This document shows positions 841-47,925 of a stretch of DNA of 64,000 bases, one piece after another; position 1 is the first letter of the stretch; each line of letters opens with the position of its first letter. This DNA is from Escherichia coli (GTDB lineage Bacteria > Pseudomonadota > Gammaproteobacteria > Enterobacterales > Enterobacteriaceae). The stretch lies in assembly GCF_030384885.1 (NCBI RefSeq), contig NZ_CP128613.1. One strand, given 5' to 3'. Both the position numbers and the translations under genes were made by a program. Under the pieces are notes generated by a model. The model ran no database searches and was not told where the DNA came from. It saw only the letters and a program-made list of their open reading frames with translations.

Positions 841-1005
841 TGCGATCTCTCTTAAATAAAAATAAACGTCGCAGATAATAAAGCCCTGATTAAACCAGGC
901 ACTATCAGAAATCGCTCATAACTAATATATGCAGCATTGTGTACTGGAGGGAATTAATTTAACAATTTGAATTTACGTTATAGATTTTACTGCTACTTTG
1001 ATAGT

Positions 1006-1047
1006 ATTTCGCCCTTCTTAACTAAAAAGTTAAGTGGAGGGCGAAAT
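1006..1047. terminator. Inverted repeat (10-bp stem ATTTCGCCCT / AGGGCGAAAT, inner palindrome in the loop) just downstream of yahK
   Basis: Read directly from the sequence between the yahK stop and the yahL start; no strong T-tract follows, so terminator function is uncertain. Confidence 0.3.
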
Positions 1048-1082
1048 TAATATGTTAAATCATAGAGCATTTATTAATTTTT

Positions 1083-2132
1083 TCAGTCTGTTAGTGTGCG
1101 ATTATCGATAACAAAACGATATTTCACATCACCACGTAGCATTCGCTCATAGGCTTCATTAATTTGATCGGCCCGAATCATCTCTATATCAGCCACGATG
1201 CCATGTTCGGCGCAAAAATCGAGCATCTCCTGTGTTTCTGGAATGCCGCCAATCATAGAGCCGGCTATCGCGCGGCGTTTCATGATCAGGTTGAAAACTT
1301 CCGGCGATTTATGCGGTGTCGCAGGCGCACCAACCAGCGTCATGGTGCCATCGCGCTTCAGCAAGGTGGTAAAATCGTCGAGATTATGTGGCGCAGCTAC
1401 GGTATTCAAAATGAAATCGAAACTCTTCAGATGAGTCGCCATCTCATCGGCATTGCGTGAGTTAACAACTTCATCGGCCCCCAGGGCTTTTGCCGCTTCG
1501 CGTTTTGACTCAGACGTGGTAAACGCCACTACATGCGCCCCCATCGCGTGGGCCAGCTTTATCCCCATATGCCCCAGACCGCCAATGCCGACCACTCCCA
1601 CTTTTTTACCCGGCCCGGCCTGCCAGTGACGTAGCGGCGAGTATGTGGTGATCCCTGCACACAACAAAGGCGCCACCGCCGCCAGCTGCTCTTGCGGGTG
1701 ACGAATACGCAGAACATATCGCTCATGAACGACGATCTGTTGTGAGTAGCCGCCCAGCGTATGGCCCGGTTCATCCGGCGTCGGCGAGTTATAGGTGCCG
1801 GTCATGTGATCACAGTAGTTTTCCAGCCCATCTTCACACTCTTCGCAATGTTTACAGCTGTCGACAATGCAGCCGACACCGACCAAATCGCCCGGTGCAT
1901 GTTTTTTTACCTGATCACCAACGGCTACCACGCGCCCCACAATTTCATGACCCGGCACGCAGGGGTAAACCGTCCCCGCCCACTCGGAACGCACCTGGTG
2001 GATATCGGAATGGCAGACGCCACAGTAAGCGATTTCGATTTTGACATCATGCGGTCCCGGTTCACGCCGGGTAATATCCATCGGTTCCAGCGGTTGTTTA
2101 GCGGAATATGCACCAACAGCTTTGATCTTCAT
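1083..2132 (-). CDS. yahK: Zn-dependent NADPH alcohol/aldehyde dehydrogenase (MDR family)
   Basis: 349 aa; catalytic zinc motif GHEIVG, structural-zinc cysteine cluster (CKHCEECEDGLENYC), Rossmann motif GIGGLGHMG. Confidence 0.9.
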   Translation of the reverse strand: MKIKAVGAYSAKQPLEPMDITRREPGPHDVKIEIAYCGVCHSDIHQVRSEWAGTVYPCVPGHEIVGRVVAVGDQVKKHAPGDLVGVGCIVDSCKHCEECEDGLENYCDHMTGTYNSPTPDEPGHTLGGYSQQIVVHERYVLRIRHPQEQLAAVAPLLCAGITTYSPLRHWQAGPGKKVGVVGIGGLGHMGIKLAHAMGAHVVAFTTSESKREAAKALGADEVVNSRNADEMATHLKSFDFILNTVAAPHNLDDFTTLLKRDGTMTLVGAPATPHKSPEVFNLIMKRRAIAGSMIGGIPETQEMLDFCAEHGIVADIEMIRADQINEAYERMLRGDVKYRFVIDNRTLTD

Positions 2133-2218
2133 TGTGTTTACTCCTGATTAGCTATGTGTATTTGGCGATGCCTGATATGTCATCGCGGCAAAACGCGTCC
2201 ATTGAATATAGCCAATAT

Positions 2219-3205
2219 TTAAACCACCCGATCCAGCCCCAACATGCCGCGAGCCTGAATGAAACAGAGCAGCAACGTTCCCCATAAGGCCATCGTCAGG
2301 TAGGGGCTTATCCCGAGAATATTGAAGCCGCTTTCAATAATTTGCAGAAGAAACAGCGCCAGCACCATACCAATTATCCGCCCGCTGCCGCCGTCCGGAT
2401 TAACCCCGCCGAGTACTGCCGCGAGGATTGACACCAGCAAGTACGATTCGCCATAAGAGGCCTTAGCCGAGTTGAGTTTCGACATCATCAAAAATGCTGC
2501 TACCGCACAAAGCAAGGCGGAAATGACATACACCCATATCAGCACCCGACGCGTGTTAATACCGGAGTAAAGTGTTGCTCGTTCGTTAGAACCAATCAGA
2601 TAAATGGATTTACCGAGCGGCGTTTTCTCCAGCAATATCCACAGCCCCAGCGCCACTGCGGTAAACAACCACATCGGTAGCGGAATACCGAACCACTGTG
2701 CATGATTCAACCACAGCACCCATGAGGGATAATTGGCAATGGCGCTACCGCCTGTCACCAGAATATTTACCCCCTTGAGCAACGTCATCATCCCAAGCGT
2801 TGCAAGAATTGGCGACACTCGAATACCAGCAATCAATACGCCGTTACATAAACCGATTATCACCGCCGCGCCAGCGCCCGCCAGCAGCGTAGCGACAACC
2901 GTAGCAATACCCGGTGGATACTGAGTCGCCACCCACGCCATCACCAGTGAACAGGCGTTAGCAGTGGCAATAATTGACAAGTTAATGCCACCGCAAAGCA
3001 TGGTCACCGCCATAGCCAACGCCAGAATGCCCAGCACGGGCATTTGCGAAGCGACGGACTGGAAATTACTTATCGACCAGAAAATCTCCGGCATAGTAAT
3101 GCTGAAGGCGGCAACAGTTAGCACCAGCAGGCCGATCAAGTAAAACTCAATGTTATTACGCCACGATTTTTTCATAGCAGACTCCGGTTCTGATGCTGAC
3201 TCCAC
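2219..3205 (-). CDS. ABC transporter permease (monosaccharide/CUT2-type)
   Basis: 328-aa highly hydrophobic multi-TM protein; start overlaps the stop of the upstream permease (translational coupling). Confidence 0.85.
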   Translation of the reverse strand: MESASEPESAMKKSWRNNIEFYLIGLLVLTVAAFSITMPEIFWSISNFQSVASQMPVLGILALAMAVTMLCGGINLSIIATANACSLVMAWVATQYPPGIATVVATLLAGAGAAVIIGLCNGVLIAGIRVSPILATLGMMTLLKGVNILVTGGSAIANYPSWVLWLNHAQWFGIPLPMWLFTAVALGLWILLEKTPLGKSIYLIGSNERATLYSGINTRRVLIWVYVISALLCAVAAFLMMSKLNSAKASYGESYLLVSILAAVLGGVNPDGGSGRIIGMVLALFLLQIIESGFNILGISPYLTMALWGTLLLCFIQARGMLGLDRVV

Positions 3206-4143
3206 GCCGTGGCGCTAATGCTGGCAACGATGATGATGCCTGTGATCAATGTTTGCCAGTAAGACGAGACTCCCAATAAATTTAGCCCGTTTTGCATCAC
3301 TGCCAACAACACCACGCCGAGCAAAGTACCGGTTAACGTGCCGCGCCCGCCGAGCAAACTAGTGCCGCCAAGCACCACCGCAGCCAGTACTGTCAGCTCA
3401 TAACCCAGAAGAGAATCGGGGGCGACAGTCATCACCGTCCACGACTGCACTACACCCGCAGCACCAGACATCAATCCCATATAGCCGTAAACGAAAAGTT
3501 GCAGTTTCAGCACGCTAAAGCCGATGCGACTGGCTGATTCACGGTTCCCGCCAAGGGCATAAATTTTGCGCCCTACACTGGTGAAATTCATGATAAACGC
3601 TGTCAGCAGCACAACCGTAATCATGGCGATCAGCGGCAGACCAAGGCCATAGTCATAGCCGTCAACATCGGTGTACTTGAACAACATTACCCCCTGCTCA
3701 AACCACGGCGGAAAGTCGTACAGCCACACACCTTTACTCAACCATAACAGCAGGCCATAGAAAATATTCAGCGTCGAAATGGTGATGATGATAGAAGGCA
3801 CCCGTAGGCGATTAACCAGTAAGGCGTTTATTAAGCCAAGTAAAATGCCGATGCCGCCCGCCAGGGCAAACGCGACAGCAAAGTTGCCACCCATTTTTTG
3901 TAGCAACAGCACCATGCCGTATTGCGCAATGATGGTCATTGCCGGAAACGAAATATCAATTCCACCGGAAATTAACACCACAAACAAACCACAGGCGAGA
4001 ATAGTCAACATGGCATAGTTATTGGCGAGATCGTACAAATTACCGAATGTCAGAAACTCGTCGCTGCGCCAGGCAAGGCCAACAAACAGCCCCACAATCA
4101 GTAATGCCAGCCAGAATTCATGACGTTTTTTCAGTTCAACCAT
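3172..4143 (-). CDS. ABC transporter permease (monosaccharide/CUT2-type)
   Basis: 323-aa multi-TM protein; start overlaps the ATPase stop by 8 bp. Confidence 0.85.
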   Translation of the reverse strand: MVELKKRHEFWLALLIVGLFVGLAWRSDEFLTFGNLYDLANNYAMLTILACGLFVVLISGGIDISFPAMTIIAQYGMVLLLQKMGGNFAVAFALAGGIGILLGLINALLVNRLRVPSIIITISTLNIFYGLLLWLSKGVWLYDFPPWFEQGVMLFKYTDVDGYDYGLGLPLIAMITVVLLTAFIMNFTSVGRKIYALGGNRESASRIGFSVLKLQLFVYGYMGLMSGAAGVVQSWTVMTVAPDSLLGYELTVLAAVVLGGTSLLGGRGTLTGTLLGVVLLAVMQNGLNLLGVSSYWQTLITGIIIVASISATAWSQHQNRSLL

Positions 4144-5635
4144 TTACCACCTCCGCAATCCTGGCCTGAGAACTGCTGTCAGGCAGGAAGCTATGGGTGA
4201 TCTGACCTTTTTGCATTACCAAAATCCGGTGGCTTTGATACCACGCTTCTTCAATTTCATCGCAGATCATCAATACCGCAATGCCATGAGCCGCCAGATC
4301 GCTGATAATGCCGTATATTCCTGCTTTGTTGGCGATATCAACACCGACAGTCGGGCTATCGAGAATCAACAGTCGTGGCCCAATCGCCAGCCATTTGGCG
4401 ATCGATACTCGCTGCGCGTTACCCCCGGAAAGCGTATTCACCGGGAGATGTGGGTCAGAGACTTTGATGGTCAATGCCTTAATTAGCCTGTCCACCAGGT
4501 CACGCACTTTAGCTTCACTCAGAAAGCCGAAGCGATCTTTTACCTTGTGAAAAACAGTGCTAATGATGTTGTCTTCAATAGATTGCGCCATCACCAAACC
4601 GCGCGACATGCGATCTTCCGAAACATAACCAATACCGTGGCGGATGGCGTCCTGGTTACTATGCAGTGTAACCGGCTGACCGTTGATGAGGATCTCACCA
4701 GCATCCGGTCGGGTCATACCAAACAGACTCAGACATAATTCCGTGCGCCCCGCACCAAGCAGGCCAACAATCGACACCACTTCGCCCGCTTCCACCCGCA
4801 AGTTAATATTTTGATATTCCCCATGACGACTTAAATTACGCACCTCCAGCACTGGGGTGCTGGATTTTCCCTGCCACAACTCTCGCACCTGATATTCAAA
4901 CTCCTGGCCGGTCATCAGGAAACCGAGTTGTTTTGTGGTCATCTCTGCAGCCGGAAAGGTCCCGACCAGCTCACCATCTTTCAACACTGAAATACGGTCG
5001 GAAACTTCCATCACCTCTTCCAGACGATGACTGACGAAGACCACGCAAATCCCGCGTTCCCGCAATTGATGCACCACCTGTAATAACCCTTGCACTTCCT
5101 GATGGGTCAGCGAAGCGGTTGGTTCATCCATCACGATCAACCGTGCGTCCTGCGCCAGTGCACGGCAAATTGCCACCAGCTGACAGCGGGCAATTGAAAG
5201 CTCAGAAACGAGCGTATCCAGTGGCAATGTGACGTTAATACTGGTCATTGCCGCCTGCGCCACCTCACGCAGACGACGTCGGTTAACAAACAGACCGTGG
5301 TGATAGTGATTCACGGCGATATTCTCCCAGACACTCAGGTTAGGAAATAAAGAGAGGTCCTGATAAATCACCTGAATCCCCTGCGCCACCGAAGCGGCGG
5401 GTGTCAGCTTTGACCAGTTTTTCCCACCAAGCGTAATTTCCGCCCCCTCATCCGGGCGATAAACACCGGACATAATTTTAATCAACGTCGATTTACCACA
5501 GCCGTTTTGCCCGGCAAGGCAGTGCACCTCACCCGACATAAAGTCGAGAGAAACATCGCGCAGCGCTCGCGTGGCATGAAACGTTTTGTTGATATGACGA
5601 AGGGAAAGGAAGGTTTCCATAGCATCCCCTGGCAA
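4136..5635 (-). CDS. ABC transporter ATP-binding protein with two tandem ABC domains
   Basis: 499 aa; Walker A GQNGCGKST, signature LSGGN, Walker B ILDSP and duplicated cassette architecture typical of sugar importers. Probable true start at the internal METFLSLRHINKTF (~5620). Confidence 0.9.
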   Translation of the reverse strand: MPGDAMETFLSLRHINKTFHATRALRDVSLDFMSGEVHCLAGQNGCGKSTLIKIMSGVYRPDEGAEITLGGKNWSKLTPAASVAQGIQVIYQDLSLFPNLSVWENIAVNHYHHGLFVNRRRLREVAQAAMTSINVTLPLDTLVSELSIARCQLVAICRALAQDARLIVMDEPTASLTHQEVQGLLQVVHQLRERGICVVFVSHRLEEVMEVSDRISVLKDGELVGTFPAAEMTTKQLGFLMTGQEFEYQVRELWQGKSSTPVLEVRNLSRHGEYQNINLRVEAGEVVSIVGLLGAGRTELCLSLFGMTRPDAGEILINGQPVTLHSNQDAIRHGIGYVSEDRMSRGLVMAQSIEDNIISTVFHKVKDRFGFLSEAKVRDLVDRLIKALTIKVSDPHLPVNTLSGGNAQRVSIAKWLAIGPRLLILDSPTVGVDIANKAGIYGIISDLAAHGIAVLMICDEIEEAWYQSHRILVMQKGQITHSFLPDSSSQARIAEVVNG

Positions 5636-5668
5636 TAAGAATCGGGGCTTTCGCCCCGAAGAAATGGA

Positions 5669-6655
5669 TTAATAAAGTGAGTCAATATTGTCTTTGTTGA
5701 CCAGTAATACCTTATGGAAACGGATAATTCGCTTATCCATATCTACGTCGGCCTTACCGAGATTCTCCATTTCTAATCCAGGTTTGATCTCTTCACCCTT
5801 CAGCAACGTGCTGGCGACGGCCGCGAGTGCGTAACCTGCAGAGGCCGGATCGTAAGTAATCCCTTCGGTGATATCACCACTTTTAATCAGTGATGCCGCC
5901 TGTGAAGGGATCATCATGCCATAGACTGCGACTTTATTTTTCGCCCGTTTCTCTTTCACCGCACGTCCCGCGCCAATCGGACCGTTTGAACCAAAGGAGA
6001 CAACCGCTTTCAAGTCAGGATAGGTTTTCATGAGGTCCAGTGTGGTACGACGTGAGTCATCCACACTCTCGGCAACCGGCATGCGGCGGGTAACTTCATG
6101 CATATCCGGGTAATGCTCTTTCTGGTATTTCACCAGCAAGTCAGCCCATAAGTTATGCTGCGGCACGGTCAAACTACCCACGTAAATCACATAGCCGCCC
6201 TTGCCACCCATGCGTTTCGCCATATGTTCAACATATTCAGCGGCAAATTTTTCGTTATCAATGATTTCGATATCCCAGTTAGCACTTGGCTGACCGGGGG
6301 ATTCGTTGGTCAGAACCACAATTCCGGCATCTCGCGCTTTTTTGAATACCGGTTCCAGCACGTTGGCATCGTTTGGCACAATTGTAATTGCATTAACCTT
6401 ACGGGCGATTAAATCCTCAATGATTTTAACCTGTTGCGGAGCATCAGTACTTGAAGGTCCCACCTGTGACGCATTAACACCAAAGGCTTTACCCGCCTCG
6501 ACCACACCTTCGCCCATGCGATTAAACCACGGCATACCATCGACTTTAGAGATATTCACCACGACTTTTTCCGCTGCCTGGAGCGGCGAGGAAATTAGCG
6601 CAGCGCCTAATAACAGCGAAGACACCATATTGATAACAAAACGTTTATTCATCAT
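5669..6655 (-). CDS. Periplasmic substrate-binding protein (LsrB/RbsB-like, type I)
   Basis: 328 aa with N-terminal signal peptide (…SSPLQAAEK); overall resemblance to AI-2/ribose-binding proteins including the C-terminal NKDNID motif. Substrate unknown. Confidence 0.8.
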   Translation of the reverse strand: MMNKRFVINMVSSLLLGAALISSPLQAAEKVVVNISKVDGMPWFNRMGEGVVEAGKAFGVNASQVGPSSTDAPQQVKIIEDLIARKVNAITIVPNDANVLEPVFKKARDAGIVVLTNESPGQPSANWDIEIIDNEKFAAEYVEHMAKRMGGKGGYVIYVGSLTVPQHNLWADLLVKYQKEHYPDMHEVTRRMPVAESVDDSRRTTLDLMKTYPDLKAVVSFGSNGPIGAGRAVKEKRAKNKVAVYGMMIPSQAASLIKSGDITEGITYDPASAGYALAAVASTLLKGEEIKPGLEMENLGKADVDMDKRIIRFHKVLLVNKDNIDSLY

Positions 6656-6905
6656 TTCAGCCTCATTGCAGGGTAGTCAGGAAGTGTTCGCCCAAATTAG
6701 CGCGCTGGAGAGAATAAGAATTTTCGAATATTTTTATGCAGAATAAACAGCCCTATTTCAGGCAGCTATTAAAAATTTGGTTATAAATATGGACAAAACG
6801 GGCAGTAACAATAAGTGTGACAATCATCACGTAAAAAATAGTAAAACAAACACAATTAACGATATTTTATGTTTGTGAGTTTATTTCATGCGGATAGAGA
6901 GTTAT

Positions 6906-7316
6906 CTACACAACTTCAATGAGGGCATATTCTTCAAAAATAACGTCCATTTCGGGTGAATAGCTTCCCTCTGCCTGGAAAAAACGACGGTGTTCATTGC
7001 GCCAATATTCAAGACTAAGATCACCTTCACCTTCCTTACGGGCAAGCTCCGCGGTGACATCAGAAAATCGCAGTAAATGCAGGCCAATCACTCTGATAAC
7101 ACATACAGGCTCACCACGGCTATTTTCTACAATCTTATACTCACCAATCATCGGAAATGCGTTGTCTTCAATACATCCTGCCAGCGAACCACAGGAAGCA
7201 GTTTTAACACCAGTTGCAATCAACGTTGCGAGGTAATCGGCCAACGCTGCTGAATCGCCAAAACTACAAAAGGAAGCATGGGGATATTTTTGTGAGATTT
7301 TTTCTTTTATGGTCAT
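6906..7316 (-). CDS. ASCH-domain-like small protein
   Basis: 136-aa ORF of ASCH/PUA-like size and composition; assignment from sequence resemblance only. Confidence 0.55.
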   Translation of the reverse strand: MTIKEKISQKYPHASFCSFGDSAALADYLATLIATGVKTASCGSLAGCIEDNAFPMIGEYKIVENSRGEPVCVIRVIGLHLLRFSDVTAELARKEGEGDLSLEYWRNEHRRFFQAEGSYSPEMDVIFEEYALIEVV

Positions 7317-7613
7317 GAGAATATTTTCGCGATTACGGAAAAAAAATCACATCTTAATTACTGTCGATAACTATCAGCAAGAGGATCATTGGTTTTTCTA
7401 TGTTTAATCTTTTTTATCCGAAGCAGGTCACATTTATGGCTTGATAAATACCTTTGTTAAAACTCACTTTTGTGTATTTCTCTCAAATAATCCCCTGGAA
7501 ATTATGCCGGGAGATTATAAAGTTCAGGATCATTCATTAACAAACCATTCCCGCCCCACTCCCTGGGGCTTAAATCTCTTACTATTCACCGTTGCAGGCG
7601 TTTCAAATTCGTA

Positions 7614-8996
7614 TCAACCTGCCACACTCCCCCACACCAGTTGCCCTTTATGGAACGTTGCGGTTCTCGGCGAGATACGCGCCACCGCCTCGGCGGAACA
7701 GGAGGCGTCCACCAGCACAAAGCTGGCGTCATCCTGCGCTTTAGGCCAGACGCGCTCGCCTTTTTCGTTGAGCGGCAATACATCACCAGTGGCTAAAAAC
7801 AGCGAGCGGGAAAGGTTCTGTTCGTTAGGGCGAATATAGAGCTGCGCGTACAGATTGGCTTTTTCCAGCATGTCGCCCAGGCCGTAAGGCGACCAGTGGT
7901 CAATAACGCTGTCAGTGCCAGTCATTACTTTTACGCCTTTGTCGTGCAGTTGTCTAAGCGGCATATGCAGCGTGCCAATCGGTACCGTCGAGGCAATAGA
8001 AATTTGCTGCGCCGCCATCCGGTTCGCCAGTTCATCTACCTGTTGCTCGTTGAGGGTAGCCAGCGCAAAGGCGTGGCTGATGGTCAGCTTGCCTTTTAGC
8101 TGCGGCGTTTTCTCCACTGTTTCAACCATATAATTGATGGCCGCCACGCCCGCCGGAGTGGTTTCGTGCAGGTGAAGATCGACGCCTTTGTCGTAGTCCA
8201 GCGCAATCTGGAACATGGTGTCGAGGGATTTTTCCATCGCGCCATCAACACTGGTCGGGTCCAGCCCGCCAACGTAATGCGCGCCTGCCTGCATTGCTTC
8301 ACGCATCAAGGGTTCCGATTTCGACAGCAGCAAACCGTGCTGCGGGAAGGCGACAATTTCACACTCGAAGCCCGCCTGACGTCGCGCCAGCACCGCCTGC
8401 AAATTTTGCAGATTTTTCAGGCCGGAAACCGGTTCGATATTGCAGTGGCTGCGGGCAATGGTGGTGCCTTTCGACTGCAATAAATCGATCAGTTTTTCTG
8501 CCCGCTCCTGCGTGTAGGGTTGCAGTTCCGGCAGCATTTTTTGCTCGAGTTTGATCATGTCCTGGATGGTGGTGCCTGCCGGGCGATTGAGCGAGCGCCA
8601 CGGTCCGCCGTAAAAGGTTTTGTCGAGATGAATATGCATGTCGCGAGTAGTGGGCAGCATCAGCTTACCGCCAGCGTCATATTGCGGCAGCGTGGCGTCC
8701 GGATGCTGCTTGTTCTCATGTAGCGCAACAATTTTACCGTCCTGAATCTCCACGGTCTGGCGCGCCGTGCGGGTCTGCACCGCCACACCGTTTTCGTAGT
8801 CAAAACCGGTTTCCAGCAGCACGTTATCAAGATAGTAATGCGGGTCAGTGATTTTCATGGTGTTATTCGCGTCGCAGTGGGTTGTGCCAGAGACCTCCGC
8901 ATGGGCGAATGGCACAGAGGTACCAAACAGCGCGGCGGCGGTGACCATCTTACCGCTCTGGCTCAGAAATTCACGGCGGCTATTGTTTTTTTTCAT
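7614..8996 (-). CDS. yahJ: Tat-exported amidohydrolase/deaminase (metal-dependent hydrolase superfamily)
   Basis: 460 aa; N-terminal twin-arginine motif SRREFL followed by a hydrophobic stretch ending AHA; HxH-type metal-binding motifs of amidohydrolases. Confidence 0.85.
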   Translation of the reverse strand: MKKNNSRREFLSQSGKMVTAAALFGTSVPFAHAEVSGTTHCDANNTMKITDPHYYLDNVLLETGFDYENGVAVQTRTARQTVEIQDGKIVALHENKQHPDATLPQYDAGGKLMLPTTRDMHIHLDKTFYGGPWRSLNRPAGTTIQDMIKLEQKMLPELQPYTQERAEKLIDLLQSKGTTIARSHCNIEPVSGLKNLQNLQAVLARRQAGFECEIVAFPQHGLLLSKSEPLMREAMQAGAHYVGGLDPTSVDGAMEKSLDTMFQIALDYDKGVDLHLHETTPAGVAAINYMVETVEKTPQLKGKLTISHAFALATLNEQQVDELANRMAAQQISIASTVPIGTLHMPLRQLHDKGVKVMTGTDSVIDHWSPYGLGDMLEKANLYAQLYIRPNEQNLSRSLFLATGDVLPLNEKGERVWPKAQDDASFVLVDASCSAEAVARISPRTATFHKGQLVWGSVAG

Positions 8997-9005
8997 CTTA
9001 CGTCC

Positions 9006-9956
9006 TTACGTTTTAATAATATGGGTGCCCGTTTCGCCACGCAGCGCCGCGGGCAGGCATTCCGGCGTGGTGATAATCACTTCTTTACCGCCCTGTTCCA
9101 GGAACGTCAGGCTGGCGATGATTTTTGGCAACATGCTGCCTGGCGGGAAATGCCCTTCCTGCATATAGCGGGTCATGGTGGCAATATCCACCCGATCCAG
9201 CGCCTGCTGCTGCGGTTTGCCAAAATGAATACAGACTTTTTCCACGCCAGTGGTGATCACCAGAATGTCGGCGTGAATTTCACGGGCCAATAGCGCGGTA
9301 GAGAGATCTTTGTCGATAACCGCGTCCACGCTTTGGTAATCCCCCGCTTCACTGCACACCACCGGAATTCCACCGCCGCCCGCGCCAATTACCACAAAGT
9401 CTTGTTGGATCAGCGCCTTAATGGCAGGTGCTTCGACAATACGTTTCGGTTCCGGCGAGGCGACCACGCGGCGATAGCCGCGTCCGGCATCTTCAACAAA
9501 ACGCCAGTCAGGGTTAGTCTTTTGTAATTCGTCACGCTGGCTGTCACTAAAGAATGCGCCGATGGGCTTGGTGGGATGGGCAAACCCCGGATCGTTTTTA
9601 TCCACTTCCACCTGAGTCACCACAGTGACGGCTTTTTTCTCGCCGTGGCGCGCCAGCCGATTGTTCAGCGCCTGTTGGATCAAGTAGCCAATGCCGCCTT
9701 GCGTATCTGCCACACAGTTCGCCAGCGGCGTTAAGGGCAGCCCTTCGCGCTCGTGGGCAATCTCCGCACGGCGTAGATCCAGCCCAACCTGCGGCCCGTT
9801 GCCGTGGGTCAGCACAATGTCGTAATCGGAAGCCAGCATTTCCAGCACCGTATCGGCGACGGCCTTCACCGCCTCCGCCTGATGCTCAATCGACTGGCTG
9901 GCGTTATCTTTGATAATGCTGTTGCCACCAATGGCAACGACCACAAGCTCTTTCAT
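9006..9956 (-). CDS. yahI: Carbamate kinase-like protein
   Basis: The track ORF (9006..10073) carries an N-terminal extension overlapping yahG; the start at MKELVVVAIGGNS gives 316 aa, with a typical carbamate/amino-acid kinase N-terminus. Confidence 0.85.
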   Translation of the reverse strand: MKELVVVAIGGNSIIKDNASQSIEHQAEAVKAVADTVLEMLASDYDIVLTHGNGPQVGLDLRRAEIAHEREGLPLTPLANCVADTQGGIGYLIQQALNNRLARHGEKKAVTVVTQVEVDKNDPGFAHPTKPIGAFFSDSQRDELQKTNPDWRFVEDAGRGYRRVVASPEPKRIVEAPAIKALIQQDFVVIGAGGGGIPVVCSEAGDYQSVDAVIDKDLSTALLAREIHADILVITTGVEKVCIHFGKPQQQALDRVDIATMTRYMQEGHFPPGSMLPKIIASLTFLEQGGKEVIITTPECLPAALRGETGTHIIKT

Positions 9957-10051
9957 ATTGTTATGTCCGCTACAGAGGGTGATGAGGTTATGAAAGTGAG
10001 GTTGCCCCTCTCCCCAGAAGGGAGAAGGGATCGTAAAGTGCACTTTGCAGG

Positions 10052-11470
10052 TCAGACGCCGTAACGTTCGCACCAGCCAAGAATGGCTTTTTCGAAGCAG
10101 GCGAATGGTGGATGCACAATGCCCGCGCCAATCATGCCGACGCCCGCATCTTTATGGGCAATGGCGGTGTTGATCACTGGCAGAATGCCACTGCTACCCA
10201 CGCGGGTGATGTCGATTGCCGACGGCACGCCCATAAATCCGAGCAGCGGAATGGTGACGTTCGGGTTTTCGCCGAGGGTGATTTCACGCATCTGGCGGGA
10301 GAAATCGATAGCCTCTTCCACCGTACCGCCCACCAGCGCGACGATAGCGGGTGCGGTCGCCATAGCAAATCCACCAATGCCGTAGGTTTCGGTGATGGCG
10401 CTGTCGCCAATATCCAACCCAGAATCTTCCGGCTTATAACCTGCAAACATCGGGCCGATCACCTGCTGCGCCGGACCGGTAAACCATTGCCCCGGCAGGC
10501 CGCTGACCCGCAGGCCGAACTCGACGCCGTTACGCGCCATCGTGGTCACCACGGTGCTGTATTCGATGCCGTGCGCCGCATCCATCGCCGCTTTACACAT
10601 CGCCATCCACGTCGGGCCGGAGAAGTAGTCGCTGCTGGCGACAAACTCAAACACTTCGCGCTGTTGCTCGACGGAATAACCCGCCTGAATAATCCCCGGC
10701 GTCAGCGCCTGAATCAGCAGCGTCGTCCCGGCGTTATTGCGGTTATGGCATTCATCGCCCATATGCAGCGCCTGCGCCAGCATCAAGCGCAGATCGATCT
10801 CGCCGATAATTTTCATCGCGTCACGCAGCATTGGCCCCTGCACATCGCGCATCCAGTTGAGGCGGTCAATCACGCTCTGATCGTTGGCACCCATACGCAA
10901 AATCTTCGCCATCTGCTCGCTCATATTGGTGTAAGCGATGTTGCCGTAGGTTTTGTTTTTCACGATGTGCATAAACATCGAGGCAGAGGTAACACCCGCC
11001 ATCGAACCCACGCAGTCATGCTCGTGGCACGGCGAGAAAGTGATCTCCCCGGAAGCCGCCAGTTCGGCCGCCTCGTCGAGATCTTTCGCCAGCCCTTCGA
11101 ACACCAGGGCCCCGGTGACCGCGCCTTTCATCGCGCCGCACATTTTTTCCCAGGTCACTGGCGGCCCGGCGTGAAGAATGGTTTTCGCCGTCATGCCTGG
11201 CACCACGTTAATCGCCTGATCAAAGCCAATCAGTACCGGATGCGACTGGATAATGCGTTCCAGCGCCTGCTGGTTAGCGGCGGCGATTTTGTCTGCCAGC
11301 GGTGAATCGGCAATGTTGTCCAGCGCCTGCACCACCTGCATATTGCCCTGCCCCGGCGGCGTCCAGTCGAGTTGGGTCACTTCTACATACTGCTTTTTCA
11401 GGTCATCGCTAAACATGGCGATGCCGACGTTAATAACGTTCAACGGTTGGCTAAACAGTGACTGGCTCAT
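10052..11470 (-). CDS. yahG: DUF1116-family protein, paralogue type of AllG/YlbE
   Basis: 472 aa; start overlaps the yahF stop by 1 nt (coupled translation). Confidence 0.85.
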   Translation of the reverse strand: MSQSLFSQPLNVINVGIAMFSDDLKKQYVEVTQLDWTPPGQGNMQVVQALDNIADSPLADKIAAANQQALERIIQSHPVLIGFDQAINVVPGMTAKTILHAGPPVTWEKMCGAMKGAVTGALVFEGLAKDLDEAAELAASGEITFSPCHEHDCVGSMAGVTSASMFMHIVKNKTYGNIAYTNMSEQMAKILRMGANDQSVIDRLNWMRDVQGPMLRDAMKIIGEIDLRLMLAQALHMGDECHNRNNAGTTLLIQALTPGIIQAGYSVEQQREVFEFVASSDYFSGPTWMAMCKAAMDAAHGIEYSTVVTTMARNGVEFGLRVSGLPGQWFTGPAQQVIGPMFAGYKPEDSGLDIGDSAITETYGIGGFAMATAPAIVALVGGTVEEAIDFSRQMREITLGENPNVTIPLLGFMGVPSAIDITRVGSSGILPVINTAIAHKDAGVGMIGAGIVHPPFACFEKAILGWCERYGV

Positions 11471-13017
11471 CAGGCTTCCTCCCCTTTGCAGATAAATTCA
11501 CGCGCCAGCAATCCGGTATTGGTGCTACTGCTCGCCAGAATCACTCCGGCATCAAGCAGCATCTGGCTTTGTTGTTCTAATGATGGCGTATCGAGATCGG
11601 TGCCCAGTACATAGGCGAGAATGATCAACTCGCGTCCTTCGGCAGCGGCGATCGCTTTCGCTTCTTTGATCGCCTTGATGGTGGAACCGACCGGATCTTC
11701 ATGCGATCCAAATCCGAGCACAAAATCCATCACGATCACCGCCACTTCTGGATCACGCGCTTCTTCGATCAAGCGACTGATGCGGTTGGTGGGGTCAATC
11801 ATTGGATGCGGCTTGCCGTTGGTGAAGTCGTCATCGCCAAAGTCGAGGAAGGTGTGTTTGATGCTGCGGTTGATATCTTGCAGGCGGAATTCAGGATCGG
11901 GCTGGATGTTGCTGTAGACATCGCCGTGTTTTTCCATCACCGCGAACATGGTTTCGTCGCACAGTGTGCCGCCGCAGAACAGGCCACGAATGTATTTCTG
12001 CCGCGGTTGCAGACGCGCACGCACATCCGCAATCAACGGCTGGTTCAGGGTATGCAGGTCGAGATGTTCTTGTTTCACGCCACAGAGCATCACCGCTTTC
12101 AACGCCGCCTCTTTGGTGCCGCGGGCAAACTGTAGCCCGTGCTCGTCCACCGGTGTTTCGCCACGGCCGAGGAAGCAGACCACCACCGGCTTGCGGCAGG
12201 CGCGTGCGCGTTCCAGCACTTTGCGGGCCACCGCAGGCGCGGGCGGTTTGGAGATAAGTACAATGATTTCAGTTTGCGGATCGTTTTCCAGCATCCCGAT
12301 AGCGTCGAGCATCATCAGGCCGCCGATTTTCTCGCTCAGGTCGCGCCCGCCGGTACCGATCAGTTGCGAAACGCCGCCGCCAAATTCATGAATGCGGACG
12401 CTCAGCTCCTGGCTGCCGGTGCCGGATGCGCCAACAATACCGATGTTGCCGCGACGCACGGCGTTACCAAAGCAGAGCGCCGCGCCGTTGATAATCGCCG
12501 TGCCGCAGTCTGGCCCCATCATCAGCAGCCCTTTTTCGTGGGCCAACTGTTTGAGCGCCAGTTCATCTTCAACCGAGACGTTATCGGAAAACAGCATCAC
12601 GTTAAGATCGTTTTGCAGCGCCTGACGTGCTTCGCGAGCGGCAAACAGACCGTTGACCGAAATCACGGCCAGGTTACTTTCCGGGATATGCTTTTTGGCG
12701 CTGGCAATCGTGGCGTAACGCGCCTCGTGCGAGCCACTTTGCGCTTTGCTGTTGAACAGTTCTTCAATCTCCACCAGCAACTGCTCGTTGTCTGCGCCCG
12801 CTTTGCCGTTGATGACAATCATCAGGTCGCCGTTTTTCGCCTGTTCCAGCTCCGGCGTCAGCAGCCCTAAATTCTTCAGAACGCCTTTGTTCATTTCGGT
12901 CGCCATCGCCACAAATGCCTGCTCGACACCGTCGAGTTTATTTGCACGTGTGGAGATAGACATCAGCGAGACAGAATCAAAATAGGTATTCGGTTTAATG
13001 ACTATTTTAACTGACAT
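11470..13017 (-). CDS. yahF: FdrA-like protein (succinyl-CoA-synthetase-alpha-like CoA-binding fold), paralogue type of AllF
   Basis: 515 aa; glycine-rich nucleotide/CoA-binding motifs; overlaps the yahE stop. Confidence 0.85.
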   Translation of the reverse strand: MSVKIVIKPNTYFDSVSLMSISTRANKLDGVEQAFVAMATEMNKGVLKNLGLLTPELEQAKNGDLMIVINGKAGADNEQLLVEIEELFNSKAQSGSHEARYATIASAKKHIPESNLAVISVNGLFAAREARQALQNDLNVMLFSDNVSVEDELALKQLAHEKGLLMMGPDCGTAIINGAALCFGNAVRRGNIGIVGASGTGSQELSVRIHEFGGGVSQLIGTGGRDLSEKIGGLMMLDAIGMLENDPQTEIIVLISKPPAPAVARKVLERARACRKPVVVCFLGRGETPVDEHGLQFARGTKEAALKAVMLCGVKQEHLDLHTLNQPLIADVRARLQPRQKYIRGLFCGGTLCDETMFAVMEKHGDVYSNIQPDPEFRLQDINRSIKHTFLDFGDDDFTNGKPHPMIDPTNRISRLIEEARDPEVAVIVMDFVLGFGSHEDPVGSTIKAIKEAKAIAAAEGRELIILAYVLGTDLDTPSLEQQSQMLLDAGVILASSSTNTGLLAREFICKGEEA

Positions 13018-13870
13018 AATTCCCTCCGTAGGTTTGGCTCAGCGCACAAGCATCGGCCATGCCATACAGCATGTCGCAGCCGGAACTGGAGCCAATATGT
13101 TTAATTTTTTCTATTGCCTGGGTTGAATTCCCAGGGATGCCATAAATAATGTCGTGAATAAAATGGTGAATATTTTCCCGACAACGTTGCTGTAATGCGG
13201 CTTCCAGCGTTATGGCACTTAGTAACGTGGTATTATTTCTGCCGCGTTGCAGACCGAGATAAAATTTCTCTTTGTATTTTTCCGCCGGATGCCCGGAAAT
13301 AAATAAAATAAGTACCAGCCCGGTCAGATAATCATCGGCTGATGGCGTAAGGCCAATCCCTAACCCCATCATATTAGCAACCGCCAAAGCGATATTTTGT
13401 TTATCGCTTACTGCCTGAATAACTGCCCGTCGTTTAATACGTAATTCTTTATTTAACGCCTGATAAAACGGATTATCGCCGCAATAATTAAACAGGGTTT
13501 CATTTTCCCCCAGGTGCTGATGAATAATGTCGTGCCACTGTTGCCAGGCGATAAGGTGAAATTTTTCAGCAGTCATTTGCAAGGTTGGGGACAGCCAACG
13601 CTGGCAATGACTCATCTCTATATGAAGATGTTGACCAACCGTAATGCCTTGATCGTCAAACTGAACTTTATCACCATGATGGAACAGACCATTAAAGTGA
13701 GTGAGTGCCAACCGACAACTGTTTGGCGCATTGTCGTACTCTTCACAAAGCAGCGTCAGCAACTGCTGGCGGGCCGGAAGTGCGATATTTACCGCTCTGG
13801 CAAAGACCTGTTCAACCTGTCCTTGCCCCCGCTGCGCCAGAAAATCAGCATCCGCAGTTAGCGCCCACAC
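13007..13870 (-). CDS. yahE: DUF2877-family protein, paralogue type of AllH/YlbF
   Basis: 287 aa; position and length match yahE. Confidence 0.8.
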   Translation of the reverse strand: MWALTADADFLAQRGQGQVEQVFARAVNIALPARQQLLTLLCEEYDNAPNSCRLALTHFNGLFHHGDKVQFDDQGITVGQHLHIEMSHCQRWLSPTLQMTAEKFHLIAWQQWHDIIHQHLGENETLFNYCGDNPFYQALNKELRIKRRAVIQAVSDKQNIALAVANMMGLGIGLTPSADDYLTGLVLILFISGHPAEKYKEKFYLGLQRGRNNTTLLSAITLEAALQQRCRENIHHFIHDIIYGIPGNSTQAIEKIKHIGSSSGCDMLYGMADACALSQTYGGNYVS

Positions 13871-13909
13871 ACACCGTCTTTCTGGTGTGTTGATAGCAAG
13901 CCTCCCGGT

Positions 13910-14515
13910 TTATGCACCTGCGGCAATCAGTAACTGCGCAATCTCTTCAAAGCCTCGTTCCCGCGCCAGTTCCAGCGGCGTTTTACCATATTTATCGGTC
14001 AGATGCGGGCTGGCACCGTGCTCCAGCAATAACTGGACAATCGCCTGCTGTTTAATCCCACCATCGTTAAGCACAATCGCTTCCAGTAGCGGCGTCCAGC
14101 CAACATGGTTGGTCTGGTTAACGTTAATATCCGTATGCGCCAAAAGCTCTTTTACAATACTTAAATGGCCTTTTTCACAGGCAGGCGTCAGGCCGACACC
14201 GCCGAAACGGGTTACACAATTAAGGTCTGGTTTAGCCGGTAAAATAATTCGTAGTAGCGTTAAATCACCGTTCAGGCAGCTCATTAAAAAAGGATTTAAA
14301 CAGGTCTGGTCTTGTTTATTAATATCCGCACCGGCATCAATTAACGCCTGAACGCAAGCATATTGCTGATATAAACTTGCCAGCGTAATTGCCGTTTTCC
14401 CCTGGCGATCGCAGGTATTAATATCGACACCCAGCGCAAGGCAGGTTTTTACTTTATCGATATCACCCTGTTGTGCAGCCAATAAATAATCGGCAGGTAG
14501 ATTTTTTATACTCAT
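13910..14515 (-). CDS. yahD: Ankyrin-repeat protein
   Basis: 201 aa with repeated ankyrin-type motifs (G-TPL…A…G…-V--LL-.GA-.N). Confidence 0.85.
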   Translation of the reverse strand: MSIKNLPADYLLAAQQGDIDKVKTCLALGVDINTCDRQGKTAITLASLYQQYACVQALIDAGADINKQDQTCLNPFLMSCLNGDLTLLRIILPAKPDLNCVTRFGGVGLTPACEKGHLSIVKELLAHTDINVNQTNHVGWTPLLEAIVLNDGGIKQQAIVQLLLEHGASPHLTDKYGKTPLELARERGFEEIAQLLIAAGA

Positions 14516-14772: not shown

Positions 14773-15270
14773 ATGAACGGACTCACGGCAACGGGTGTCA
14801 CCGTCGGTATTTGTGCAGGGCTTTGGCAGTTAGTGTCTTCACATGTCGGGCTCTCTCAGGGATGGGAATTATTAGGAACCATTGGCTTTGTCGCCTTTTG
14901 CAGTTTTTATGCCGCAGGCGGCGGTAAATCGGGGTTTATCAAGAGCCTGGCGGTTAATTACTCCGGGATGGTGTGGGCGTTTTTCGCCGCGCTGGCTTCC
15001 GGTTGGCTAGCCTCGGTGAGTGGGATTTCCGGCTTCTGGGCGAGCGTGATTATGACTGTACCCTTCTCGGCGGTGGTGGTCTGGCAAGGACGTTTCGGTT
15101 TACTGTCTTTTATTCCCGGAGGCTTTCTCGGCATGACGCTATTTTTTGCCAGCGGGATGAACTGGACGGTGACATTACTGGGTTTTCTGGCGGGTAACTG
15201 CGTGGGAATAATTTCAGAATATGGCGGACAAAAATTAAGCGAAGCGACGACTAAACGCGACGGGTATTAA
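14773..15270 (+). CDS. yahC: Small inner-membrane protein
   Basis: 165-aa hydrophobic glycine-rich ORF with multiple TM segments. Confidence 0.75.
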   Translation: MNGLTATGVTVGICAGLWQLVSSHVGLSQGWELLGTIGFVAFCSFYAAGGGKSGFIKSLAVNYSGMVWAFFAALASGWLASVSGISGFWASVIMTVPFSAVVVWQGRFGLLSFIPGGFLGMTLFFASGMNWTVTLLGFLAGNCVGIISEYGGQKLSEATTKRDGY

Positions 15271-46586: not shown

Positions 46587-47174
46587 ATGAAAAAAAAGGT
46601 TCTGGCAATAGCTCTGGTAACGGTGTTTACCGGCATGGGTGTGGCGCAGGCTGCTGACGTAACAGCTCAGGCTGTAGCGACATGGTCGGCAACAGCCAAA
46701 AAAGACACCACCAGTAAACTGGTGGTGACGCCACTCGGTAGCCTGGCGTTCCAGTATGCCGAAGGCATTAAAGGCTTTAACTCACAGAAAGGTCTATTTG
46801 ACGTGGCTATTGAGGGTGACTCAACGGCTACCGCCTTTAAACTGACCTCACGTCTTATCACCAACACCTTAACCCAGTTGGATACCTCAGGTTCCACACT
46901 GAATGTGGGCGTGGATTATAACGGCGCGGCAGTCGAAAAAACTGGCGATACCGTGATGATCGATACCGCCAACGGCGTACTGGGCGGCAACCTTAGCCCG
47001 CTGGCTAACGGTTACAATGCCAGCAATCGTACCACCGCACAGGATGGTTTCACCTTCTCCATCATCAGCGGTACCACCAATGGTACCACCGCAGTAACCG
47101 ATTACAGCACTCTACCGGAAGGCATCTGGAGCGGCGACGTTAGCGTACAGTTCGACGCGACCTGGACCAGTTAA
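46587..47174 (+). CDS. ecpA: E. coli common pilus major subunit
   Basis: 195 aa, signal peptide, Thr/Ser/Gly-rich pilin. Confidence 0.95.
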
Positions 47175-47189
47175 TCTCTCTGATGTACC

Positions 47190-47215
47190 AGCAGGGGTAG
47201 CCCCCCTGCTTTATT
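47190..47215 (+). terminator. Intra-operon hairpin after ecpA (stem AGCAGGGG / CCCCTGCT)
   Basis: 8-bp GC-rich stem and TTATT immediately after the pilin stop; candidate partial terminator setting pilin:assembly-gene stoichiometry. Confidence 0.35.
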
Positions 47216-47231
47216 CCTGGACGGAATTGTT

Positions 47232-47900
47232 ATGAAAAAGCACCTTCTGCCTCTCGCTCTGCTGTTTGCCGGAATATCTCCGGCCCATGCGCTGGATGTC
47301 GGCGATATATCATCGTTTATGAACAGTGACAGCAGCACGCTGAGCAAAACAATCAAAAACAGTACCGACAGTGGTCGCCTCATCAATATCCGTCTCGAAC
47401 GGCTCTCTTCACCGCTTGACGACGGGCAGGTTATCGCAATGGACAAGCCGGATGAGTTGCTACTCACTCCCACCAGCTTGCTGCTACCCGCCCAAGCCAG
47501 CGAAGTGATCCGCTTCTTCTATAAGGGACCAGTAGATGAGAAAGAGCGCTATTACCGCATTGTCTGGTTCGATCAGGCCCTCAGTGATGCGCAGCGCGAT
47601 AATGCCAACCGCAGCGCTGTAGCCACTGCTTCCGCCCGCATCGGCACCATTCTGGTCGTCGCCCCCCGCCAGGCGAACTACCGCTTTCAGTACGCCAACG
47701 GCTCCCTGACAAATACAGGAAATGCGACGCTGCGGATCCTCGCCTACGGCCCCTGCCTGAAAGCCGCCAATGGTAAGGAGTGTAAAGAAAACTACTACCT
47801 GATGCCGGGCAAGTCGCGTCGTTTTACCCGCGTGGACACTGCGGATAACAAAGGACGGGTTGCACTTTGGCAGGGTGATAAGTTCATTCCCGTGAAATAG
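47232..47900 (+). CDS. ecpB: ECP pilus periplasmic chaperone
   Basis: 222 aa, signal peptide, operon position. Confidence 0.9.
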
Positions 47901-47925
47901 ATAGCTGTGCAGATGGATAACGACA

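Follow-up and report, generated by a model that had tools for sequence, protein, structure and literature searches.

The yahJ gene in the window (the whole 64,000-nt stretch of Escherichia coli DNA that was analyzed) most probably encodes a Tat-exported, periplasmic mononuclear-metal aminohydrolase of the AtzC/CodA branch, which would belong to an ancestral yah pathway. The interval given for yahJ in the preliminary description of this DNA holds an ORF as claimed, and only its strand had to be corrected to minus: the minus strand of 7614-8996 is a 460-codon ORF with its ATG at 8996, whereas the plus-strand translation is riddled with stops. In RefSeq, the same interval is labeled 'yahJ: amidohydrolase family protein'. 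The features of the gene are as follows.

7614..8996, minus strand: yahJ coding sequence, 460 aa plus stop, for an AtzC/CodA-family amidohydrolase with a predicted Tat signal (ORF and translation)
8898..8996, minus strand: predicted Tat signal peptide, residues 1-33, MKKNNSRREFLSQSGKMVTAAALFGTSVPFAHA, with predicted cleavage after AHA
8964..8981, minus strand: SRREFL codons (twin-arginine consensus), residues 6-11
7617..8897, minus strand: predicted mature YahJ, residues 34-460, a variable linker of about 15-19 aa followed by a beta-sandwich and TIM-barrel amidohydrolase domain
9003..9007, minus strand: yahJ Shine-Dalgarno sequence AAGGA, 6 nt before the ATG and overlapping the yahI stop codon (9006-9008), from reading the sequence

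The spacing between yahI and yahJ is 9 nt in the window, and the overlap of Shine-Dalgarno sequence and stop codon suggests that the two genes may be translationally coupled.

The N-terminus of YahJ reads MKKNNSRREFLSQSGKMVTAAALFGTSVPFAHA up to the predicted cleavage point and EVSG after it. The Tat motif reported in the preliminary description (SRREFL, a hydrophobic core and an AxA-like site) is present in all its parts, with SRREFL at residues 6-11, an uncharged core of 17 residues after K16, and AHA at positions -3 to -1. SRREFL agrees with the S/T-R-R-x-F-L-K consensus, but Ser stands in place of the consensus Lys and the next Lys lies 5 residues past the Leu. The signal is 33 aa long, within the range of 22 other E. 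coli Tat signals (mean 32.6; table in PMC7549933). Its core is moderately hydrophobic, with a maximal 10-residue Kyte-Doolittle average of 1.63, at the low end of the E. coli Tat set (1.87 +/- 0.28) and below the 2.13 of the Sec-type signal of the neighboring ABC binding protein. Among the 89 ORFs of at least 100 aa in the window, only yahJ has [ST]RRxF[LI] within the first 40 residues, and the pattern occurred in 4 of 17,800 shuffled N-termini; the twin-arginine motif is more than a chance occurrence. Just two models match the N-terminus and both are Tat-signal models, one of them TIGR01409, which scores 13.9 bits, under its cutoff of 16.7. A loose TatFIND-like rule was discarded: it forbids Glu after RR and therefore missed yahJ, and it flagged two antisense ORFs in the ecp fimbrial operon.

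The signal is conserved over a wide range of relatives. RRxF[LI] is found in nearly all of 120 close YahJ homologs and, with identity falling to 53%, in essentially all of 80 loci that represent species of gamma- and alpha-proteobacteria; the two arginines themselves are kept in 80 of 80. The hydrophobic core and the linker, unlike RR, are variable across these 80 loci. The N-terminal 48 aa of YahJ are an add-on to the enzyme. Relatives whose identity does not exceed 45% mostly have about 400 aa and no N-terminal extension, the PRK06846 match spans residues 49-459 only and leaves out the signal, and pLDDT in the AlphaFold model is at most 51 for approximately residues 1-48 and at least 95 beyond. 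Met47 aligns with the start of cytoplasmic homologs. A dual start, with Met47 giving a cytoplasmic form, was nevertheless rejected because Met47 is not conserved and is not preceded by a Shine-Dalgarno sequence.

It is highly improbable that the extension is something other than a Tat signal, with native YahJ being cytoplasmic, Sec-routed or anchored in the membrane by an uncleaved signal. The alignment of Met47 and the TIGR01409 score under cutoff would be compatible with such a reading. Moreover, the C-terminal part of the signal, toward the cleavage site, lacks a basic residue for Sec avoidance, so that routing of unfolded YahJ through Sec is conceivable, and organophosphate hydrolase, judging from the title of Gorla et al. 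2009 (cited in PMC9306846), is membrane-associated after Tat export. Against this, RR is invariant across wide divergence while neighboring residues drift, the core is weaker than that of a Sec signal, AHA with Pro at -5 makes a good signal-peptidase site, the features of Met47 do not support an internal start, and YahJ is included in published lists of Tat substrates. It appears among the Tat substrates by TatP (PMC7549933) and in a substrate table based on Dilks et al. 2003 (PMC3027627); hence the Tat signal of YahJ was already known, and the present observation of it adds nothing new. From these published lists we infer Tat-dependent export of native YahJ. In mice, the competitive index of a delta-yahJ mutant was 0.70, a mild attenuation (PMC7549933). 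Our literature search for functional work on yahD to yahJ returned lists and passing mentions only. The key reporter-fusion study is reportedly that of Tullman-Ercek et al. 2007.

The mature part of YahJ matches Pfam Amidohydro_3 and belongs to NCBIfam PRK06846, whose cutoff of 447 bits it passes with 713.7. A profile search of the PDB gave 6nbo (E = 6e-82), AtzC (5e-66) and CodA (about 1e-47), and Foldseek ranked the hits of the AlphaFold model (overall pLDDT 91.6) likewise, with 6nbo and AtzC first and CodA next; these matches give the modeled protein a distorted TIM barrel with an N/C-terminal beta-sandwich. Residues were mapped by means of the published roles of AtzC residues (PMC4577212). 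H121, H123, H275 and D362, invariant in the family alignments, correspond to the AtzC zinc ligands His60, His62, His217 and Asp303, and H308, which is at least 90% conserved, is the counterpart of the essential catalytic His249. YahJ thus has the residue set of a subtype III amidohydrolase: the HxH, His and Asp ligands of one metal and a catalytic His after strand 6. Five of six AtzC pocket residues are kept as well, Lys65, Gln160, Asp188, His219 and Trp309 being K126, Q219, D246, H277 and W368 in YahJ; the sixth, Asn304, is replaced by Ser363 at a position that is variable within the family. At the positions of K126 and H277, CodA has Thr66 and Glu217. A role as cytosine deaminase was rejected: the CodA signature Thr66/Glu217/Asp314 is Lys, His and Ser in YahJ, and the NCBIfam CodA models reach only 73-105 bits against cutoffs of 403-483. 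As judged from sequence, mature YahJ is an AtzC/CodA-type mononuclear-metal aminohydrolase with pocket residues that resemble those of AtzC more than those of CodA. Since the Tat signal is deeply conserved and the four metal ligands are retained, the earlier proposal that a folded, metal-loaded enzyme is exported to the periplasm would still be the best reading, and it agrees with the published substrate lists.

Upstream of yahJ lie the remaining genes of the same operon, for which the name 'operon yahDEFGIJ' has been used (PMC4765031). Pfam and NCBIfam assignments of the individual genes are given below.

9006..14515, minus strand: upstream genes of the yahDEFGIJ operon (Pfam, NCBIfam, RefSeq annotation)
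13910-14515, minus strand: yahD, ankyrin protein
13007-13870, minus strand: yahE, AllH-like
11470-13017, minus strand: yahF, AllF/FdrA-like
10052-11470, minus strand: yahG, AllG-like
9006-9956, minus strand: yahI, carbamate kinase

A tightly packed yahD-E-F-G-(permease)-I-J cluster with yahJ as its last gene was found in 36 species loci. In 31 loci of other genera, comprising most of the Enterobacterales sampled and Aeromonas, a 516-aa permease gene stands between yahG and yahI; it is missing from the Escherichia locus. Sequence and profile searches with this permease gave no hit in Pfam, NCBIfam or the PDB, and it is placed by its predicted fold only: the model (pLDDT 82.7) matches SVCT1, BicA, SLC26Dg, UraA, AZG2 and UapA, pointing to a UraA/SLC26-type fold that would fit nucleobase and anion carriers alike. 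Source databases name it xanthine/AGZA permease.

Not every YahJ homolog is accompanied by this cluster. About 45 of the 80 species-level loci have no yahEFGI, and YahJ therefore need not feed the yah pathway. In alpha-proteobacteria, Pantoea, Rahnella and Photorhabdus, the Tat-bearing homolog is paired only with a LysR regulator; Cedecea and Erwinia persicina have the ankyrin protein as the sole further partner besides LysR. The Tat signal is kept in both kinds of locus. These loci would suit a stand-alone periplasmic enzyme that scavenges or detoxifies an external heterocycle, by release of ammonia or an amine or by inactivation, and whose position in the yah operon is secondary. We consider this possible but rather doubtful, for yahJ is the last gene of the packed cluster in the 36 loci mentioned above, with the 9-nt yahI gap and the overlapping Shine-Dalgarno sequence. 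The cluster of Firmicutes also speaks against it. Brevibacillus and Neobacillus have the same ank-AllH-AllF-AllG-carbamate kinase-permease cluster under a PucR regulator, and in the place of YahJ there is a 150-aa protein of the cytidine/dCMP-deaminase fold, unrelated and cytoplasmic. As this cluster retains a deaminase of another fold, deamination is argued to be part of the pathway. On the other hand, because the Firmicutes deaminase is cytoplasmic and the same permease family is present, deamination outside followed by import is not intrinsic to the module. The earlier suggestion that the substrate is processed outside the cytoplasm before uptake is plausible, and the permease gene within the operon of the 31 loci fits such an order, but the many loci without yahEFGI speak against YahJ being a first step of the yah pathway. 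Moreover, no ring-opening enzyme was found in the yah cluster, which leaves a gap between the YahJ product and the carbamoyl donor.

On the other side of yahJ lies an ABC importer, which the preliminary description had taken to fit a periplasmic first step. The genes concerned are listed below (single genes by Pfam/NCBIfam).

2291..7552, minus strand: 5.26-kb segment absent from K-12-type E. coli, with an ASCH gene and a CUT2-type ABC importer (blastn of K-12 against the window)
6906-7316, minus strand: ASCH gene
5669-6652, minus strand: ABC binding protein
4136-5620, minus strand: ABC ATPase
3172-4143 and 2219-3175, minus strand: ABC permeases, the last 72 nt of the second lying outside the 5.26-kb segment

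According to the reading that joins them in one pathway, the periplasmic product of YahJ would be taken up by this adjacent importer (2219-6652). The yahJ and ABC genes are neighbors on the same strand here and in 2205 of 5426 complete E. coli genomes, the block being counted as present when a match covered at least 80% of the yahK-to-yahJ query. In K-12-type strains the 5.26-kb block is deleted, with yahJ kept and a permease remnant annotated; since the K-12 state is a secondary deletion, the adjacency is ancestral within E. coli. In addition, because Escherichia is without the operon permease of other genera, another importer would be needed there for the YahJ product. A cytoplasmic YahJ homolog (P0130) adjoins an ABC system of Bmp type that likewise has the CUT2 architecture (the gene context of a second, P0133, was uninformative), and a homologous ABC block abuts codBA in Providencia, although this may merely reflect a common chromosomal neighborhood.

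However, the ASCH and ABC block stands beside yahJ in none of the 80 loci outside E. coli, and most complete E. coli genomes have yahJ without it. Providencia and Budvicia have both yahJ and ABC systems, at separate places. Homologous blocks with 76-79% identity occur on their own in Yersinia and Atlantibacter, besides the one next to codBA in Providencia. An AT-rich gap of 250-300 bp lies upstream of the ASCH gene and another upstream of the binding-protein gene, the first with a promoter-like site, and G+C content differs (about 50% in the ABC genes, about 40% in ASCH, 55-60% in yahF-J). The binding protein is a Peripla_BP_4 member of the sugar-binding type, closest to proteins that bind rhamnose and AI-2; RhaS and LsrB are its best models, both scoring under threshold. 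Conserved adjacency, co-retention and the absence of a regulatory gap were thus not found for yahJ and the importer. A partnership of the two is unlikely, and the proposed fit with the neighboring importer is not supported; uptake of the YahJ product by this importer as part of one pathway seems improbable to us.

The reading that we prefer, a Tat-exported aminohydrolase of the ancestral yah pathway, would proceed as follows. YahJ would be made with a cleavable twin-arginine signal peptide, most likely fold and take up its metal in the cytoplasm, and be exported in the folded state by TatABC as a soluble periplasmic enzyme. It would most likely act on an oxo-substituted N-heterocycle and remove an exocyclic amino or alkylamino substituent by hydrolysis, with pyrimidine-, s-triazine- or nucleobase-like compounds as candidate substrates. 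In the ancestral operon, probably a LysR gene next to yahD-E-F-G-permease-yahI-yahJ, the operon-encoded permease, with a predicted 7+7 inverted-repeat fold, would bring in the product. The AllFGH-like carbamoyltransferase and the carbamate kinase would then process it, giving carbamoyl phosphate and ATP. The permease would then have been lost in Escherichia. Both the substrate class and the order of these steps are what we infer. Tentatively, and with some doubt, the yah cluster may be seen as a catabolic module, so far undescribed, that gains energy from an amino-oxo N-heterocycle, for example one resembling ammelide, 6-aminouracil or a modified nucleobase, with a Firmicutes version that uses a cytoplasmic deaminase. 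The ankyrin protein YahD travels with YahJ even without yahEFGI, and it could be a YahJ-specific partner, such as a cytoplasmic chaperone, an inhibitor or a co-exported subunit.

Few E. coli Tat substrates lack a known function, and YahJ is among them. Its AtzC-like nature, the dedicated permease as the usual operon partner and the replacement deaminase of Firmicutes narrow the search for its substrate, and they steer experiments away from the ABC importer, probably a coincidental neighbor.

Compared with known systems, YahJ resembles the E. coli SRRxFLK Tat substrates (such as SufI, CueO, AmiA/AmiC and EfeB) in its motif, the 33-aa length, the moderate core and AxA. Unlike most listed E. coli Tat substrates, it has no known physiological role, and it differs in the Ser for consensus Lys and in a TIGR01409 score just under cutoff. 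Its predicted fold, four ligands and catalytic His are those of AtzC (N-isopropylammelide isopropylaminohydrolase, PDB 2qt3 and 4cqb) and its structural-genomics homolog 6nbo, with Foldseek E values of 1e-30 to 1e-34 and target-normalized TM-scores of 0.84-0.89 for the YahJ model. However, identity with AtzC/6nbo is 21-28%, Asn304 of AtzC is Ser363 in YahJ, and the chains of AtzC and 6nbo, at about 400 aa, align only from about residue 50 of YahJ, with no counterpart of the 48-aa extension. AtzC is part of a recently assembled herbicide pathway. With CodA and 5-methylcytosine deaminase (PDB 1k6w, 4r7w), YahJ shares the subtype III amidohydrolase cluster and the HxH...H...D ligands, and Gln156, His246 and Trp319 of CodA have equivalents in YahJ; in contrast, identity with CodA is 23%, the signature residues are changed, and CodA has no export signal.

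The AllFGH oxamate carbamoyltransferase and the AllK carbamate kinase act in anaerobic allantoin degradation (PMC11326118, PMC9843812). YahE falls into the AllH family, YahF into AllF/FdrA and YahG into AllG, with YahI as a carbamate kinase, which suggests that YahEFG and YahI may phosphorolyze an acyl-urea to carbamoyl phosphate and then form ATP. The yah genes are paralogs, however, and the all cluster has no Tat-exported amidohydrolase, ankyrin protein or such permease; the AllFGH and YbcF papers make no mention of the yah genes. Finally, organophosphate hydrolase (OPH/PTE) of Brevundimonas diminuta is, as far as the title of Gorla et al. 2009 indicates (cited in PMC9306846), a Tat-exported enzyme of the amidohydrolase superfamily. 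YahJ is likewise an amidohydrolase-superfamily metalloenzyme with a Tat signal, whereas OPH/PTE is a membrane-retained binuclear enzyme of subtype I with phosphotriesters as substrates, and the two are not homologous at the family level.

The last gene of the yahDEFGIJ operon, yahJ, was read from the window as follows:

7614-8996, minus strand: yahJ open reading frame of 460 codons, from open reading frame analysis and translation
8996, minus strand: ATG start codon of yahJ, preceded by AAGGA at 9007-9003

On the plus strand of the same interval, the same-frame reading is broken by many stop codons, and E. coli 2013C-4282, which is 100% identical to the window, annotates the gene as yahJ, "amidohydrolase family protein". 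The AAGGA shares bases with the yahI stop codon (the yahI-yahJ junction is 9 nt), so translational coupling of the two genes is probable. A few database proteins (P0002, P0004, P0006 and P0008) are YahI-YahJ fusions of 677-780 aa (AA_kinase plus Amidohydro_3), presumably arising from read-through or sequencing error at this junction; the Tat signal would become internal in such a fusion. Met47 (window 8856-8858) aligns with the start of signal-less cytoplasmic homologues. A cytoplasmic isoform starting there seems unlikely, because no Shine-Dalgarno sequence precedes this codon and other genera do not conserve it. When the 8.1 kb of window 1000-9100 were searched, at least 99% identity was found with the source strain only and all other E. 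coli genomes were 90-99% identical, which argues that the source strain represents a divergent lineage, at least at the yah locus.

The N-terminus of YahJ is MKKNNSRREFLSQSGKMVTAAALFGTSVPFAHA, followed after the predicted cleavage site by EVSG, and the translated sequence shows the preliminary description (SRREFL motif, hydrophobic core, AxA-like site) to be correct. Compared with 22 further E. coli Tat signals tabulated by PMC7549933, the signal (33 aa, with a 17-residue uncharged core and an AHA site) lies within range. The hydrophobicity of its core, 1.63, is below that of the Sec-type signal on the adjacent binding protein, 2.13. By sequence statistics, the motif is beyond chance: [ST]RRxF[LI] occurs within the first 40 residues of yahJ alone among 89 window ORFs of at least 100 aa, and in 4 of 17,800 shuffled N-termini. 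Almost all of the 120 close homologues keep RRxF[LI], as do essentially all of 80 species-level loci of gamma- and alpha-proteobacteria with identities as low as 53%; among the latter the core and the post-cleavage linker are free to vary. The sole negative result for the signal is the generic TIGR01409 model, which scored 13.9 bits (cutoff 16.7). The extension is an add-on to the enzyme: the curated PRK06846 model covers residues 49-459 only, relatives of at most 45% identity among 1.8 billion representative proteins are mostly ~400 aa long and start where YahJ residue 50 aligns, and the AlphaFold model has pLDDT values of at most 51 for approximately residues 1-48 and at least 95 beyond. With a loose Tat-motif rule, two antisense ORFs came up as false positives in a chaperone-usher fimbrial operon (window 46587-50451, plus strand), whose first product resembles EcpA.

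The signal itself is no surprise and has already been catalogued. In 2007, Tullman-Ercek et al. reportedly included the YahJ signal peptide among 29 that they tested in reporter fusions. A TatP-derived table of Tat substrates in ExPEC PCN033 includes YahJ with an almost identical signal sequence, and in mice the competitive index of the corresponding delta-yahJ mutant was 0.70 (PMC7549933). A Salmonella-E. coli comparison table that draws on Dilks et al. 2003 lists "b0324 yahJ putative deaminase" (PMC3027627). Our literature search found no paper establishing YahJ activity or yah operon function.

YahJ matches Pfam Amidohydro_3 and NCBIfam PRK06846. Its family profile retrieved from the PDB a structural-genomics AtzC homologue (6nbo, E = 6e-82), then AtzC, the N-isopropylammelide isopropylaminohydrolase (5e-66), then cytosine deaminases (~1e-47), and Foldseek with the YahJ model gave the same ranking. 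Family models of the cytosine deaminase CodA scored far under their cutoffs on YahJ. Across 56 diverse sequences, H121, H123, H275 and D362 never vary and H308 hardly does. The profile, Foldseek and alignment results support well the metal-loaded amidohydrolase of the preliminary description; its label "deaminase" is to be read as putative.

Downstream of yahJ lie a 297-bp AT-rich gap with the region's best promoter-like site, an ASCH-domain gene, a second AT-rich gap of 250 bp, a four-gene CUT2-type ABC importer and then yahK.

6906-7316, minus strand: ASCH-domain gene, 136 aa, ~40% G+C, between yahJ and the ABC genes

The ASCH gene was seen beside yahJ in E. coli only. A characterized ASCH protein, YqfB, cleaves N4-acylcytosine derivatives (PMC6972931), and an acyl-cytosine hydrolase adjoining a CodA/AtzC-like enzyme could be either a lead or a coincidence. 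Outside Escherichia, all window proteins were compared with the 80 species-level loci and the 10 kb flanking each of them, and neither the ASCH gene nor the ABC block was found beside yahJ in any of the 80. Within E. coli, the block is present in only 2205 of 5426 complete genomes, judged by a match over at least 80% of the query from yahK to yahJ. Window 2291-7552 (5,262 bp, with the ASCH gene and the ABC importer; compared with 9292-9448 of the K-12-type locus L001) is missing from K-12-type genomes. All that is left there of the second permease gene is its last 72 nt, annotated by RefSeq as an N-terminally truncated fragment, so the K-12 state is a deletion that spared yahJ rather than an insertion in the source strain. 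G+C content is 55-60% in yahF-J, ~40% in the ASCH gene and its flanks, and ~50% in the ABC genes. The binding protein belongs to Peripla_BP_4, and its best models are rhamnose- and AI-2-binding proteins, both under cutoff. Close homologues of the block (76-79% identity) occur by themselves in Yersinia and Atlantibacter, and in Providencia stuartii (L096 5034-12485) a 79%-identical block directly follows genuine codB and codA genes, for cytosine permease and cytosine deaminase. On the E. coli K-12 map, codBA lies ~12 kb past yahK; the Providencia adjacency may reflect only a shared chromosomal neighbourhood, a relic of synteny. Within E. coli, yahJ and the ABC block are truly adjacent, and this arrangement is ancestral. 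No sign of functional coupling between them was found in the loci, genome counts, composition, binding-protein family or homologous blocks. Of the proposal that the Tat signal implies a periplasmic first step fitting the neighbouring ABC importer, periplasmic action is reasonable, and the importer part is unsupported (0/80 loci, the K-12 deletion, G+C content and a sugar/AI-2-type binding protein).

Upstream of yahJ, the window contains the following genes, those of the E, F, G and I products being assigned by family models:

13910-14515, minus strand: yahD, ankyrin protein
upstream of yahJ, minus strand: yahE, AllH-like
upstream of yahJ, minus strand: yahF, AllF/FdrA-like
upstream of yahJ, minus strand: yahG, AllG-like
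directly upstream of yahJ, minus strand: yahI, carbamate kinase
14773-15270, plus strand: yahC, DUF1097 membrane protein, near the LysR regulator

A divergent LysR gene (minus strand) is followed by yahD, yahE, yahF, yahG, a permease gene, yahI and yahJ in 31 loci, from Citrobacter, Enterobacter, Serratia, Buttiauxella, Providencia, Budvicia, Yokenella, Aeromonas and others. Two further features are found in the comparison loci:

L004 7213-8763 and L003 7300-8847: operon permease of 516 aa between yahG and yahI, present in the 31 loci
L086 9506-9964 and L087 8223-8672: 150-aa cytidine/dCMP-deaminase-fold protein replacing YahJ

The permease, called xanthine/AGZA permease in source databases, is a highly conserved membrane protein, 63-90% identical between proteobacteria and Firmicutes. 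Sequence searches of Pfam, NCBIfam and the PDB gave no match for it. Its predicted structure (pLDDT 82.7) matches carriers with a 7+7 inverted repeat, namely SVCT1, BicA, SLC26Dg, UraA, AZG2 and UapA, and a carrier fold of this type (UraA/SLC23/SLC26/AzgA) is predicted. Escherichia, Pseudocitrobacter, Kluyvera and Klebsiella spallanzanii lack it and have yahC by the regulator instead; the yahG-yahI spacing is only ~95 bp in the window and is occupied in K-12 by the REP-filled 'yahH'. yahC was seen exactly in the five permease-less lineages (L006, L007, L008, L016 and L045) and in none of the 31 permease loci, a mutual exclusion that might reflect functional replacement.

Smaller units consist of LysR, yahD and yahJ only (Cedecea, Erwinia persicina and one Enterobacter species), of LysR and yahJ (alpha-proteobacteria, Pantoea, Rahnella and Photorhabdus), or of LysR and yahJ followed by an ankyrin gene (Microvirga). 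A stand-alone enzyme for scavenging or detoxification is a serious rival to a role in the yah module, given the many genomes in which YahJ occurs without yahEFGI. The ankyrin-repeat protein YahD, which has no signal peptide, pairs with YahJ even without yahEFGI (Cedecea, Erwinia persicina and Microvirga), and a YahD-type gene is also first in the Brevibacillus cluster (observed in L027, L029, L030, L034, L035, L053-L055 and L086). Brevibacillus and Neobacillus have an ankyrin-AllH-AllF-AllG-carbamate kinase-permease cluster with a PucR-type regulator and extra permeases, and the deaminase-fold protein in the place of YahJ is a non-orthologous displacement. This non-homologous replacement supports a deaminase role of YahJ in the module, and shows periplasmic location to be a proteobacterial variant.

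The comparative results, namely the operon permease, the pairing of YahD with YahJ, the AtzC-type pocket and the other deaminase in Firmicutes, lead to a more specific and testable hypothesis of the yah module, built on the signal, family, residues and neighbourhoods of YahJ that the analysis demonstrates. In the most likely mechanism, YahJ would fold and take up metal in the cytoplasm, be exported by Tat, and have its signal cut after AHA; it would then hydrolyse an exocyclic amino or alkylamino group of a putative external heterocycle. In full-operon genomes, the product would probably next be imported by the operon's own permease and, after a presumed ring-opening step missing from the cluster, pass to the AllFGH-like proteins and carbamate kinase.

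The yahE/F/G/I products are paralogues of two enzymes of anaerobic allantoin catabolism, oxamate carbamoyltransferase and carbamate kinase (PMC11326118). For YahJ, the zinc ligands His60, His62, His217 and Asp303 of AtzC correspond to H121, H123, H275 and D362, and its essential His249 to H308 (PMC4577212). AtzC and CodA differ at Lys65/Thr66, His219/Glu217 and Asn304/Asp314 (PMC4577212), where YahJ has K126 and H277, as in AtzC, and S363, unlike both. Judged by these residues, YahJ is AtzC-like rather than CodA-like at the first two positions and distinct from both enzymes at the third.
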